Assembly (NCBI GenBank): GCA_002368295.1
Contig: AP018248.1
Location: 4,204,151-4,225,353, forward strand
Reading direction: 5' to 3'
Length of the DNA: 21,203 nucleotides
Origin: Tolypothrix tenuis PCC 7101
GTDB taxonomy: Bacteria; Cyanobacteriota; Cyanobacteriia; Cyanobacteriales; Nostocaceae
Positions 6,023 through 21,203 of this stretch are shown one piece after another (the first letter of the stretch is position 1; each line of letters opens with the position of its first letter). A program made the position numbers and the translations under genes. Below the pieces are notes generated by a model. It saw nothing but the letters and a program-made list of their open reading frames with translations, was not told the DNA's origin and did no database searches.

Positions 6023-7051
6023 TTACTTCACAAATTGAGGCATAATTTCTGCGGCGGTAAAGATGCCATAGATGCCACGTTGATGCAATTGTTTACCTGC
6101 TTTGAGATAGCCAAAAGCTGGGCCGCAGACGTTGGCTGCCATGCTGGTTTCATCCCCTAGGGTAAAGGTATGGGTAGAAATTTTACCTTCAAAAGTACGC
6201 CCTGTGACTTTAACGTTTGTACTGAGGGGCTTTTTGGGATTACGTGTATCGACTACACCCCCAACAGTAACGCGATCGCGCCCTACTATGCCGGCAAACT
6301 CTAACATTACATCATCGGCGTGTTCCATATTCTCTAAGGTAAGCACGCCATTGGTTTTATCTAGTAAGGCTTCTACTTCTGCGTCGGTCATCATTCTGGC
6401 TGCTTCTACTGTATAACCAGGCATATGACCAATATCTTCGCGAACGGTGGCGCGATAAGCTTCCCAATTGGCAATTCCCACACCAAAAGTAATTTCCACT
6501 TTGTGAATTTCGGCGTAGCTTTGGGCGGCTAAGGCGGCAGCGGCTGTTAATAGTCCTGGTGTTGCACCACACCCTGTCATGTAAGTAATTCCCGCAGCTT
6601 CTAGTTCTGCTTTCATAGATAGCAGTTGTTCTACGGCAGTGGTACGCTTAATTGCATCCACCAATACACCCCGCCAGCCAGATTTAATAAATTCTTTGGC
6701 TACTGAGGGAATAAAATCATTAGGCAGGTTGGGTAAAGCTAGAAAATAACCATCTACAGGTTGAGCGCTGGCGATTAAATCTTGAATACTATTGTTTGTT
6801 AAAGTGCCTACAGGCTCTAAATAACCTAAAGAACCCTGAGCTTGGTAGGTTTGAATGCAAGCATCTGTTTTTAAACCCTCAGCAGCATAGGCGTAACCCT
6901 TTTGATCTGCTGCTGCGACTAAAATCATTTCCCGTTTACCAGCCAGTACCTTGGCGGCTGCTTGTCCGAGTCCACCGAAACCCAGTACTCCTACGCGTAT
7001 CGCTGGTGAAATATTTAGAGAACTTTTGACTTGTTCTGGATTCATAGTCAA
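6023..7051 (-). CDS. NAD(P)-binding oxidoreductase, saccharopine-dehydrogenase-like / DapDH-like
   Basis: 342 aa. An N-terminal Rossmann motif ([14 protein letters not shown]) and a central [13 protein letters not shown] resemble the G-x-DPG segment of saccharopine and meso-DAP dehydrogenases. The family assignment is from memory of cyanobacterial annotations. The substrate is unknown. Confidence 0.55.
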
Positions 7052-18955: not shown

Positions 18956-18986
18956 AGGGCAGGGGGCAGGGGGCAGGGGGCAGGGA
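18956..18986. repeat. STRR-like tandem heptamer array (unit GGGGCAG, about 4 units)
   Basis: agggcag ggggcag ggggcag ggggcag gga, directly after the ClC stop. Confidence 0.7.
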
Positions 18987-19083: not shown

Positions 19084-19521
19084 ATGGAGCCTGTGACACT
19101 CACTGCTGCGGGAATCGCCACCCTAGTGTTTACCAAAGCTTTTGAAACCACTATAGAGAAAGCAACAGAAAGTGTTCTGAAAAAATTGGAACAGCTTCGC
19201 CAGAAGATTTTGCAGAAATTCAAGGGTACGCCCAGAGTAGAAGCAGCTTTGGTAAAAGTGCAGCAAGGCTCTAAGGAAGATTTAAATGTGGTGGCTGCTT
19301 ATTTGCAAGAGGCGATGGACAAAGACCCCAAATTTGCGGAAGAAGTGAAAACCCTGGCCACAGAAATTCACCAAGAAATTAATATTGGTAAGGTGGAAGG
19401 CAAGAATGTGCAGAATGTTTACGGTGGCGAGGCTTTTCAGTCTAATGATGCTAAGGCTCCCACGATTCAAGGGGGTAGTAATCACACTATTAATATTACC
19501 TATAATAATTCCCCCAATTGA
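19084..19521 (+). CDS. 145-aa helical N-module with an N/G/Q-rich tail, in frame with the downstream NB-ARC/TPR body (NLR N-terminal effector/adaptor-like)
   Basis: ATG ORF. Residues 1-20 (MEPVTLTAAGIATLVFTKAF) are hydrophobic. Residues 21-100 are amphipathic and helical. The last 46 residues, NIGKVEGKNVQNVYGGEAFQSNDAKAPTIQGGSNHTINITYNNSPN, include 18 N/G/Q by hand count. The ORF ends at TGA 19519..19521, in the same frame as the next feature. Confidence 0.6.
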   Translation: MEPVTLTAAGIATLVFTKAFETTIEKATESVLKKLEQLRQKILQKFKGTPRVEAALVKVQQGSKEDLNVVAAYLQEAMDKDPKFAEEVKTLATEIHQEINIGKVEGKNVQNVYGGEAFQSNDAKAPTIQGGSNHTINITYNNSPN

Positions 19522-21203
19522 CTAAAGTCGCCTGAACGGGAACAGGTAAAGCCTCATCCCCAGAGTGAAATACCGCAAAATTTCCCCCTGAGTGGGGTAG
19601 TGGAATTTGTTGGGCGTGGGGAAGAATTGCAAACACTCCAGCAAATGTTGCAGCAAAATCAACAAGTAGCGATTGCGGCTATTGCGGGGATGGGTGGAGT
19701 TGGGAAAACAGAACTGGCGTTGCAATATGCCATTGAGTACCGCGACAATTATCAAGGTGGAATTTGCTGGTTGTTGCCCAAATCTGGGGATATTGGGGTG
19801 CAAATTGTCCAGTTTGCGAGGACGCAGCTAGATTTAAACCCGCCAATAGATGTAGATTTACCCGCGCAAGTGCAATTTTGCTGGCGGCGTTGGCGTGAGG
19901 GTGATGTGCTGCTGGTGTTGGATGATGTTGCTGATTATCAGGAAGTTAAACCTTACTTTGTGTCGCTATCTTCTCGGTTCAAAATCCTGATTACTACTCG
20001 CCAGCATTGGGGACGAATAGCAGAATTACCCTTAGATGTGCTGCAACCAGAGGCGGCGCTGGAATTATTAAAGTCAATTATTGGGGTAGAAAGGTTTGAG
20101 CGGGAAAATCAACGCCACCCCCAAGTAGCATTACAGTTATGTGAGTGGCTGGGATATTTGCCCTTGGGTTTAGAGTTGGTGGGGCGGTATCTGGCGCAGA
20201 AACCAGATTTATCATTTGCAGAAATGCAGCGACGGTTGGAGAAAAAGCGACTAGAACAACCTGCGCTTAATAAACCAGAAGCCGACATGACAGCAAAACG
20301 GGGTGTGTTAGCAGCCTTTGAGTTGAGTTGGCAGGAATTAGAAGAAAATGATCAACAACTGGGCTGCTTATTGAGTTTATTTGCAGCCGCACCAATACCT
20401 TGGGTGTTGGTGGAATATTGTTTACTAGAGGAAGACGAGGAAGATTTAGAAGAAATTAGAGATGATAAGTTGTTGAATTTGCATTTACTCCAGCGCAAAG
20501 GTGAGGGAATCTATCAACTACACCCACTATTGCGGGAGTTTTTTCAATATAAGCTGACAGGTTTAGATAAAGCAGAGGAATTTAAGCATTCTGTTTGCGG
20601 GGTAATGGTAGCAGTTGCTGAAAATCTTCCTCAAACCCCTACCCTTGAGCAAATTAATGATTTCACCCCCGCTATACCTCATATAGCTGAAGTCGCAAAC
20701 AATCTCATTCAATATGTCAGTGATGATGATTTAATTTCGCCTTTCTTCGGTAATGCTAAATTTTACAGTGGTCAGGGATTGTATAACCAGGCTGTAACTT
20801 GGTGTGAGCAGTGTCTAGAAGTTACCAAAAACCTCCTAGGGGAATCACATCCAGATATTGCTACTAGCCTCAACAATCTGGCGGAACTCTATCGTTCCCA
20901 AGGTAGATACAGCGAAGCCGAACCTTTGTATGTGAAAGCTTTAGAACTAACGCAACGAAGCTTGGGGGAATTACATCCATCTTTTGCTACTAGCCTCAAC
21001 AATCTGGCGCTACTCTATCTTTCCCAAGGCAGATACAGCGAAGCCGAACCTTTGTATGTGCAAGCTTTAGAACTAATGCGACGCAGCTTAGGGGAATCAC
21101 ATCCATTTGTTGCTACTAGCCTCAACAATCTGGCGGAACTCTATCGTTTCCAAGGTAGATACAGCGAAGCCGAACCTTTGTACGTGCAAGCTTTAGAACT
21201 AAT
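19522..21203 (+). CDS. NB-ARC (STAND) NTPase with C-terminal TPR repeats, 3'-partial; body of an NLR-like protein
   Basis: Hand translation in frame 1 is open from 19522 to the window end (about 560 codons). Motifs: FVGRGEEL (from 19606), P-loop GMGGVGKT (19690..19713), Walker B LLVLDDV, ILITTR, GYLPLGLEL (the GxPLA equivalent), then 42-aa TPR units HPxxATSLNNLAxLYxxQGRYSEAEPLYVxALEL. There is no ATG/GTG/TTG before GTG 19600, and the first ATG is at 19645. It is missing from the ORF track because it has no stop in the window. Confidence 0.85.
20836..21203. repeat. 126-bp tandem DNA repeats (2.9 units visible) encoding the TPR units
   Basis: Units start at 20836, 20962 and 21088. Hand comparison: unit 1 vs 2 differ at 15 of 126 nt, and unit 1 vs 3 at 8 of 116 nt. 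Confidence 0.85.

Follow-up and report, generated by a model that had tools for sequence, protein, structure and literature searches.

Why would the gene for a NOD-like receptor (NLR) in a cyanobacterium be cut by a single in-frame stop codon, and from where would its sensor half be translated? This question is raised by a 21,203-nt stretch of DNA from Tolypothrix tenuis PCC 7101 (AP018248.1, positions 4,204,151 to 4,225,353; hereafter the window), near the end of which a short open reading frame (ORF) runs up to TGA 19519-19521 and the same frame then continues into an NB-ARC-TPR protein. Comparison with related loci points to an answer. We consider it probable, at roughly 0.7, that in-frame decoding across this UGA is the function of the arrangement, which would yield a free effector and a minor effector-NLR fusion. 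With somewhat less confidence, we also favour the more specific proposal that a dedicated structured recoding cassette, consisting of UGA-C, an 8-nt spacer and a hairpin or mini-pseudoknot, programs readthrough in cyanobacterial NLR immune genes and would supply many free Bell-amyloid effectors and few nucleating fusions per mRNA.

Locus anatomy and reading frame

The effector ORF and the NB-ARC/TPR region share one frame, with TGA 19519-19521 as the sole interruption. This had been stated in an earlier note made from the sequence alone, the coordinates of which were confirmed, and the FVGR-type element that it had placed after the TGA was located at 19606, with the P-loop at 19687-19710. The codon right after the stop is CTA. 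Past it, the frame stays open for 560 codons to the window end and for 966 codons in the full record, where the gene call (L081, 6517-9339) is in frame with TGA 6436-6438. No terminator was found between the two ORFs and no promoter signal above chance, and no tRNA genes were found within the window. The features of the locus are as follows.

19084-19521, plus strand: effector ORF of 145 codons, from ATG 19084 to TGA 19519-19521
19084-19398, plus strand: predicted Bell-like alpha-helical membrane-targeting domain, residues 1 to ~105 (AlphaFold2 (AF2) helices and homology)
19405-19518, plus strand: disordered G/N/Q-rich C-terminal tail (…VQNVYGGEAFQSNDAKAPTIQGGSNHTINITYNNSPN), presumed amyloid signalling motif, the only copy in the locus
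19519-19521, plus strand: in-frame UGA, proposed recoding site (TGA in 62/62 loci and in 3 assemblies)
19522-19529, plus strand: 8-nt spacer CTAAAGTC (family consensus CUACAGUC), C at +4 invariant
19530-19547, plus strand: RNA hairpin, GCCUG 19530-19534 paired with CAGGU 19543-19547, loop AACGGGAA 19535-19542 (RNAalifold)
19538-19560, plus strand: putative second stem of an H-type pseudoknot, GGGA 19538-19541 paired with UCCC 19557-19560, with an A-rich 9-nt connector at 19548-19556
19561-19605, plus strand: linker coding sequence from the RNA element to NB-ARC, containing GTG 19600 and under constraint in frame 0 (the frame of the effector)
19606-20256, plus strand: NB-ARC NTPase domain (PF00931, E 1.3e-14), residues 35-245 of the post-TGA frame
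19606-19617, plus strand: FVGR (FVGRGEEL), within the NB-ARC frame
19687-19710, plus strand: P-loop GMGGVGKT, within the NB-ARC frame
20740-21203, plus strand: TPR sensor repeats, cut by the window end (Pfam TPR_10 E 4.5e-46, TPR_12 E 4.5e-41)

At its junction, the conceptual readthrough product reads APTIQGGSNHTINITYNNSPN-X-LK, where X is the residue at the UGA.

Conservation of the stop codon, its context and the frame

We fetched 80 loci, with one genome per species, and analysed their junctions. The junction set comprises 62 loci, counting the window, with N-modules that are 97 to 44% identical to that of the window and that come from at least four orders: Nostocales, Coleofasciculales (Kastovskya), Aerosakkonematales and Elainellales. 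The stop codon is TGA in all 62 and the base at +4 is C in all 62, while the first codon after the stop is CTA in 42 loci and CTG in 16, and the second is CAG in 48. By comparison, long ORFs of the same loci end in TAA (104), TAG (55) or TGA (57), and a single one of these 216 stops is TGA-C. The weak TGA-C context to which the earlier note had drawn attention is a trait of the whole set, far more often than chance would allow, and no orthologue was found in which the two parts form one ORF with a sense codon at the site. The same 145-aa gene and stop are present in three independent assemblies (two from NCBI and one from an independent read-set), and the 73 N-module homologues in a collection of 5.8 billion proteins are all stand-alone proteins of 135-167 aa.

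The frame beyond the stop is equally preserved. Wherever a P-loop was found (55 loci) it lies in frame 0, and the stretch from TGA to P-loop occurs in nine lengths, from 45 to 62 codons, which always keep the frame. Over the 1622 codons between TGA and FVGR there is no stop in frame 0, as against 106 and 90 in the other two frames. The junction sequences themselves have diverged, 61 of the 62 being distinct.

Two further observations concern the immediate surroundings of the stop and the P-loop. The base at -1 to the TGA is always a pyrimidine (T in 50 loci, C in 12) despite a varying last sense codon, with GAT, TCT, AAT, AAC and ACT among those found; this pyrimidine may be part of the recoding context. 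Two Nostoc-type loci (L014 and L018) have a 7-residue insertion (…VAMSTTGYAYAAIAGMGG…) just before the P-loop, at about codons 49-56 after the TGA, which shifts the P-loop to codon 62 and keeps the frame.

Start codons and translation of the linker

An NLR translated on its own would need a start codon. In the window, the first in-frame ATG, GTG or TTG past the TGA is GTG 19600, and an ATG first appears at 19645, 14 codons ahead of the P-loop; the earlier note had given the same two positions. Gene callers begin the NLR at GTG 19600 or at the equivalent position. This GTG is not conserved, and candidate starts are scattered across the loci with no fixed position: 23 of the 55 loci lack an ATG, GTG or TTG at or before FVGR, and five lack one anywhere before the P-loop. 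Three of these five (L041, L043 and L048) have intact NLR frames of 742-900 codons; of the remaining two, the frame spans 517 codons in L047 and reaches the end of the contig in L031. The consensus of the conserved 45 nt after the TGA contains no ATG, GTG or TTG in any frame.

The linker between the RNA element and FVGR lies upstream of all candidate starts. In two groups of loci with fixed linker lengths, its dN/dS is 0.45 and 0.39 in frame 0, compared with 0.66-1.33 in the other frames, and the NLR body that follows is under purifying selection (dN/dS 0.1-0.4). The linker is also homologous to the …PPNNIPYRGVANFVGR linker, which is unambiguously translated in the two-gene BASS9 clade described below. 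These comparisons indicate that the linker past the RNA element is translated in frame 0.

A covarying RNA hairpin after the stop

Conservation over the 45 nt that follow the TGA exceeds that over the 30 nt preceding it and shows no three-base periodicity. In the first 14 codons after the TGA, synonymous divergence is suppressed (proportion of synonymous differences, pS, 0.13, vs 0.52 in NB-ARC) and dN/dS is ~1, which argues for constraint at the RNA level. The alignment supports a hairpin with a 5-bp stem that begins 8 nt after the UGA and in which 251 of 255 cells are paired. Two stem pairs show compensatory changes (CG 34 and UA 14 in one; CG 27, UG 10, UA 7 and GC 7 in the other). With a 7-pair test structure, none of 500 shuffles attained the observed value, and pairing in slid controls did not exceed 32%; with a 9-pair structure, again none of 500 shuffles did so, and slid controls were at most 54% paired. 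A covariance model of the element (R1) gave one match per locus, at the junction, and none in the two-gene sister clade. No Rfam family matches the element at E up to 10, and no copies of it were found in viral contigs. Folding of the window sequence alone with RNAfold gives a different nested structure (-15.3 kcal/mol, z -2.3); we prefer the comparative hairpin because it is the one supported by covariation.

The hairpin loop may additionally pair with the sequence downstream. The putative GGGA:UCCC stem is paired in 93.6% of cells, with almost invariant bases, and the Pro codon that would partner in this pseudoknot is CCC in 52 of 55 loci, compared with 19% CCC in the NLR bodies.

Identity of the N-module

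The N-module begins MEPVTLTAAGIATLVF, in which position 2 is acidic and a hydrophobic helix comes next. Its AF2 model is a helical bundle over residues 8-107, with a predicted local distance difference test (pLDDT) score per block of mostly 70-86, and residues 102-145 have a pLDDT below 50 and are predicted to be disordered. QNVYGG, Q119 and Q129 are invariant in the N-module family. By the description of Dyrka et al. (10.1101/2020.01.06.895854), Bell domains measure ~120-140 aa, have a hydrophobic helix at the N-terminus and an acidic position 2-3, and are encoded beside NLRs, and the window protein, with its 145 aa, its N-terminus and its modelled helices, has the same N-terminal organisation. 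It also matches the conserved 'MEPIS' type of N-terminus reported for Bell, Hell and Bab, the last of which is a Bell-type protein that executes abortive infection by amyloid signalling (10.1101/2024.11.07.622273). Furthermore, it is homologous, at E 1e-16 to 1e-24, to a clade whose motif Dyrka et al. list as bass_09 (Table S2), and its tail resembles the NVYGG-type motif of an unclassified two-gene Bell/NLR pair in the same table.

Searches of Pfam, which has no Bell model, NCBIfam and PADLOC gave no match for the N-module, and neither did a Foldseek comparison of the AF2 model with the PDB (best E 2.6). As the latter was uninformative, Bell membership rests on sequence homology together with the motif features, by which we class the window protein as an effector of the Bell type whose tail is amyloid-like. 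That it forms amyloid, targets the membrane and acts in defence is extrapolated from related systems. The earlier note had described the locus as a tripartite NLR; this outline stands, and the N-module is more precisely an effector of the Bell/BASS amyloid-signalling type. This identity, the RNA hairpin at 19530-19547 and the conservation across orders go beyond that note.

Two-gene relatives, modularity of the cassette and natural fusions

Nineteen loci within L060-L080, at 42-57% identity, are textbook two-gene Bell/NLR pairs. Their effector ends in …MTQINQDNAKGWQTKVEGGTVYQGDINIHH and their NLR begins MNQSNQDNAKGWQTQVEGGTVYQGDISIYN, with its own ATG and in another frame; the motif is bass_09 (Dyrka et al., Table S2), a second copy of which sits on the NLR, and no hairpin is present. 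The window clade has a single motif copy, just before the UGA, and none was found at the NLR N-terminus, in the 28 codons between UGA and FVGR. The repeat of the motif on the NLR, one of the features that define the published Bell/BASS class, is thus absent here, and the collinear NB-ARC-TPR neighbour is present.

The unit of TGA, spacer and hairpin is not bound to one NTPase. It links the N-module in frame to NB-ARC-TPR, NACHT-HEAT, NB-ARC-APAF1_C and AAA_16/NPHP3_N-type NTPases. A metagenome scan with the element as the pattern added 24 loci, in which the upstream ORFs, again in frame with an NLR, include no fewer than four further Bell-like families whose C-terminal motifs are unrelated. 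The cassette therefore serves at least five Bell-like families and four kinds of STAND NTPase, always in frame, and its element is better conserved than the proteins on either side. Among 1.84 billion representative proteins, a profile search returned 708 homologues of the N-module, mostly of 130-155 aa, and a protein query spanning the junction found no contiguous homologue in the large protein collection.

One candidate for a natural fusion with Trp at the site (P0099) was rejected: its DNA has TGA and had been called with genetic code 4, making it one more instance of the cassette. It corresponds to L111 488-1648 (ENA ERZ27264734, contig k141_901044), a cyanobacterial contig, and illustrates that code-4 calls can mimic natural fusions. 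Contiguous Bell-BASS9-like-NB-ARC-TPR proteins do exist (P0179 and P0184), without the segment encoded by the hairpin, and they show that a Bell-motif-NB-ARC-TPR fusion is viable. Wherever the hairpin is present the stop has been retained, and no homologue has a sense codon at the site, a pattern that suggests a need for both the terminated and the extended product.

The Bell module and the cassette also occur in other settings. In P0087, P0107, P0112 and P0120, the Bell-plus-motif module is contiguous with TIR, CHAT-TRADD-like-TIR or GUN4-like domains, so that it also pairs with partners other than NLRs. In Nostoc sp. KVJ20 (L039 4373-5104), the full TGA and hairpin cassette is followed by an in-frame extension of 243 codons with a predicted transmembrane stretch and a Ser/Pro/Thr-rich low-complexity region, and with no NTPase or Pfam match. 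In Microcoleus sp. LAD1_D3 (L110 3939-4115), a distant Bell-like homologue (P0070) also ends in TGA-C, and the frame continues for 57 codons into a hydrophobic helix (LVIGLFGLVILGIIALVIVA), with neither an NLR nor a match to the hairpin model; this may be a different readthrough extension, or chance.

A readthrough model

Established readthrough signals include UGA-C, UGA-CUA and a structure set off from the stop by an 8-nt spacer (PMC7026636). The combination found here, namely the weakest stop context under strict conservation, an 8-nt spacer and covarying structure, a frame that is open and constrained through many indels and the lack of a start, matches this known grammar. Of the options raised in the earlier note, leaky termination that gives a free module and a fusion is the one best supported by the comparative evidence, to which the covarying hairpin 8 nt downstream is now added.

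In the model that we propose, ribosomes would initiate at ATG 19084 and produce the 145-aa effector, a Bell-type helical domain with an amyloid-like motif, and the majority would terminate at UGA 19519. A minority would decode the UGA by a near-cognate tRNA, most plausibly tRNA-Trp, and stay in frame, aided by UGA-C as the weakest stop context, by the CUA or CUG that follows and by a hairpin or compact pseudoknot placed 8 nt downstream, at the mRNA entry channel. The resulting product of ~1112 aa would have the order Bell-motif-NB-ARC-TPR, and its motif would replace the NLR-borne copy of two-gene systems. Upon oligomerisation of the TPR/NB-ARC sensor, the clustered motifs of the fusions would nucleate an amyloid fold that could template the abundant free effector, whose Bell domain would then damage the membrane and cause abortive infection or regulated cell death. 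The ratio of sensor to effector would be determined by how efficiently the stop is read through, in the manner of Gag/Gag-Pol or Qbeta coat/A1. We infer the occurrence and efficiency of readthrough, the inserted residue, amyloid templating and the defence function.

Several points weigh against this model. The evidence for readthrough is all comparative, and the documented cases of structure-stimulated readthrough come from viruses and eukaryotes and not from bacterial cellular genes, where termination by release factor 2 (RF2) differs from that by eukaryotic release factor 1 (eRF1). The hairpin is small, at 5 bp, and its extension into a pseudoknot is a conjecture because the second stem shows no covariation. 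Part of the nucleotide conservation at the junction could stem from recombination or module shuffling. A fusion with a lethal Bell domain would have to be held inactive, for which the model offers no explanation. In four loci (L006, L024, L029 and L058) the effector and cassette are intact and the frame behind them is interrupted or short, at 96-194 codons; some of these are low-coverage assemblies or metagenome-assembled genomes, and the breaks may be assembly errors or decaying NLRs. Finally, the raw counts overstate the independence of the loci because these are phylogenetically related, a concern that is reduced by the divergence of the junctions, by the nine indel classes and by the multiple unrelated flanking modules.

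Alternative explanations

A true two-protein operon, in which the NLR is made from a variable or non-canonical start or by reinitiation and the hairpin serves coupling, mRNA stability or processing, seems to us unlikely. Gene callers do use GTG 19600, codons 20-26 of many loci include a GTG or TTG, Bell/NLR pairs are usually two tightly spaced genes, and a hairpin unwound by a terminating ribosome is a classical coupling device. However, the split pair with an independent NLR start that the earlier note had offered as an option is disfavoured by the lack of any positionally conserved start, with none through FVGR in 23 of 55 loci and none before the P-loop in five, and by a conserved element free of ATG, GTG and TTG in every frame. 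Such an operon has no need of frame 0, yet all 55 loci have preserved this frame, free of stops, across nine classes of indel, and coding constraint in frame 0 already acts on the linker ahead of the candidate starts. It would also leave the selection for TGA-C (62/62 vs 1/216) unexplained, and the NLR would have no motif for signalling to the effector, unlike that of the BASS9 sister clade. More doubtful still is a junction that is merely a DNA-level boundary of recombination or module shuffling, or a recently spread cassette, with no role in translation. The same ~45 nt do occur between differing Bell families and NTPase bodies, and conservation is at the nucleotide level, but the changes in the stem are compensatory and preserve RNA pairing, and a boundary of this kind requires neither the invariant TGA-C nor the 8-nt spacing, the open frame or in-frame joining to every partner. 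Recent spread is contradicted by the divergence of the junctions, since 61 of 62 are distinct.

Decoding of the UGA as selenocysteine, with the hairpin as a bacterial selenocysteine insertion sequence (SECIS) element, is very improbable, in spite of the general layout of bacterial selenoprotein genes that the locus shares, with a UGA closely before a hairpin that has G residues in its apical loop. The selenocysteine trait has been reported as undetected in Cyanobacteria (PMC1794560). Moreover, the site is in an interdomain linker and not in a redox centre, no homologue has Cys or any sense codon there, and the Rfam families, SECIS models included, gave no match at E up to 10. Even less credible is a translational bypass of the stop or a double frameshift over it. 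The take-off site of T4 gene 60 is a stop next to a hairpin, which the present site resembles; the putative take-off codon, however, recurs downstream in 29 of 62 loci, compared with ~68% expected by chance, there is no consistent landing position, and the frame is unchanged with the intervening codons under coding constraint. A recent nonsense mutation or an assembly or sequencing error, the other option of the earlier note, has, like a pseudogene, nothing in its favour beyond the bare presence of an in-frame stop and is refuted by the three assemblies, by TGA-C in all 62 loci, by the 73 stand-alone homologues, each a protein cluster, and by the dN/dS of 0.1-0.4 in the NLR body.

Other features of the window

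A perfect tandem repeat of the 7-nt unit GGGCAGG (4.1 copies, 18957-18985) is found between genes, ~100 nt ahead of the effector ATG, and is similar to the short tandem heptamer repeats common in heterocystous cyanobacteria. A pair of minus-strand ORFs of 145 and 606 aa (13684-11415) mimics the locus in size and was discarded as unrelated; it encodes a low-molecular-weight phosphotyrosine phosphatase and a PAS/HATPase histidine kinase.

Relation to known systems

Bell/BASS-NLR pairs (10.1101/2020.01.06.895854), which include BASS9 in Calothrix and Nostoc, share with the window a short helical MEP… Bell protein with a G/N/Q-rich C-terminal motif, and in the BASS9 pairs of filamentous cyanobacteria a collinear NB-ARC-TPR gene likewise follows directly behind the effector. 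In canonical pairs the motif occurs twice, at the Bell C-terminus and the NLR N-terminus, and the NLR has its own start, often in another frame, whereas the window clade has a single copy of the motif, no start for the NLR, an in-frame UGA-C that never varies and a conserved hairpin. Since the published Bell/NLR screen required the motif on both proteins, it could not detect the window class, and neither stop codons nor readthrough are mentioned in the Bell/BASS papers (10.1101/2020.01.06.895854; 10.1101/2024.11.07.622273). Bab/Agp of E. coli ECOR25 (10.1101/2024.11.07.622273) and fungal HET-S/NWD2 are similar in their membrane-targeting helical effector, with a conserved N-terminal motif, and in amyloid templating by an oligomerising sensor, but they consist of two separately translated proteins with no hint of recoding. 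All-in-one Bell-NLR proteins (P0179 and P0184; Avast2/bNACHT types) have the Bell, linker/motif, NB-ARC and TPR order of the predicted readthrough product, but they are encoded by an uninterrupted ORF with one product, unlike the 62 loci with an in-frame UGA, at which most ribosomes would be diverted to the free effector.

As a signal, the junction resembles viral and eukaryotic readthrough sites (PMC7026636), with UGA, C at +4 and CUA or CUG, an 8-nt spacer before a structured RNA and, as predicted here, an abundant short product next to a rare C-terminally extended one. Examples are UGA-C and UGA-CUA in Sindbis and other alphaviruses, the 8-nt spacer and pseudoknot of murine leukemia virus (MuLV) gag-pol, the stem-loop of Colorado tick fever virus and the UGA of Qbeta A1, and the same review tabulates a single bacterial cellular gene, from B. 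subtilis (PMC7026636). In contrast to the viral and eukaryotic cases, the present sites form a bacterial chromosomal gene family, their structure is far smaller than the MuLV and alphavirus elements, and the factor involved would be RF2 and not eRF1. The autoregulatory site of prfB, the gene for RF2, is CUU UGA C and directs a +1 frameshift with an upstream Shine-Dalgarno stimulator. It is comparable in that a poor bacterial UGA-C context allows alternative decoding, and differs from the proposed site, where the frame would be unchanged and the stimulator would lie downstream. Our literature search, the coverage of which was incomplete, returned no report of readthrough in Bell/NLR or cyanobacterial NLR genes, and the combination of Bell/BASS-NLR signalling with programmed readthrough is unreported in the literature searched.

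Implications

Functional stop-codon readthrough is well known in viruses and eukaryotes and almost undocumented for bacterial cellular genes. If our proposal is true, the cassette would represent the first case in bacterial cellular genes of a readthrough signal stimulated by RNA structure, and a conserved covarying element at the canonical 8-nt distance would provide a tractable bacterial model for readthrough, since the cassette is present in Nostoc punctiforme. Many cyanobacterial NLRs probably have wrongly annotated N-termini, because gene calls begin at arbitrary internal starts (GTG 19600 here) and some callers bridge the stop with genetic code 4. Readthrough at these loci would show that an NLR and a cell-death effector can be produced at a fixed ratio from one ORF, would explain Bell/NLR loci that are missed by paired-motif screens and would add a third architecture of amyloid-signalling NLRs to the two-gene and all-in-one types. 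Because UGA is read by RF2 only, readthrough, and hence the dosage of the sensor, could respond to the state of the translation apparatus during infection.

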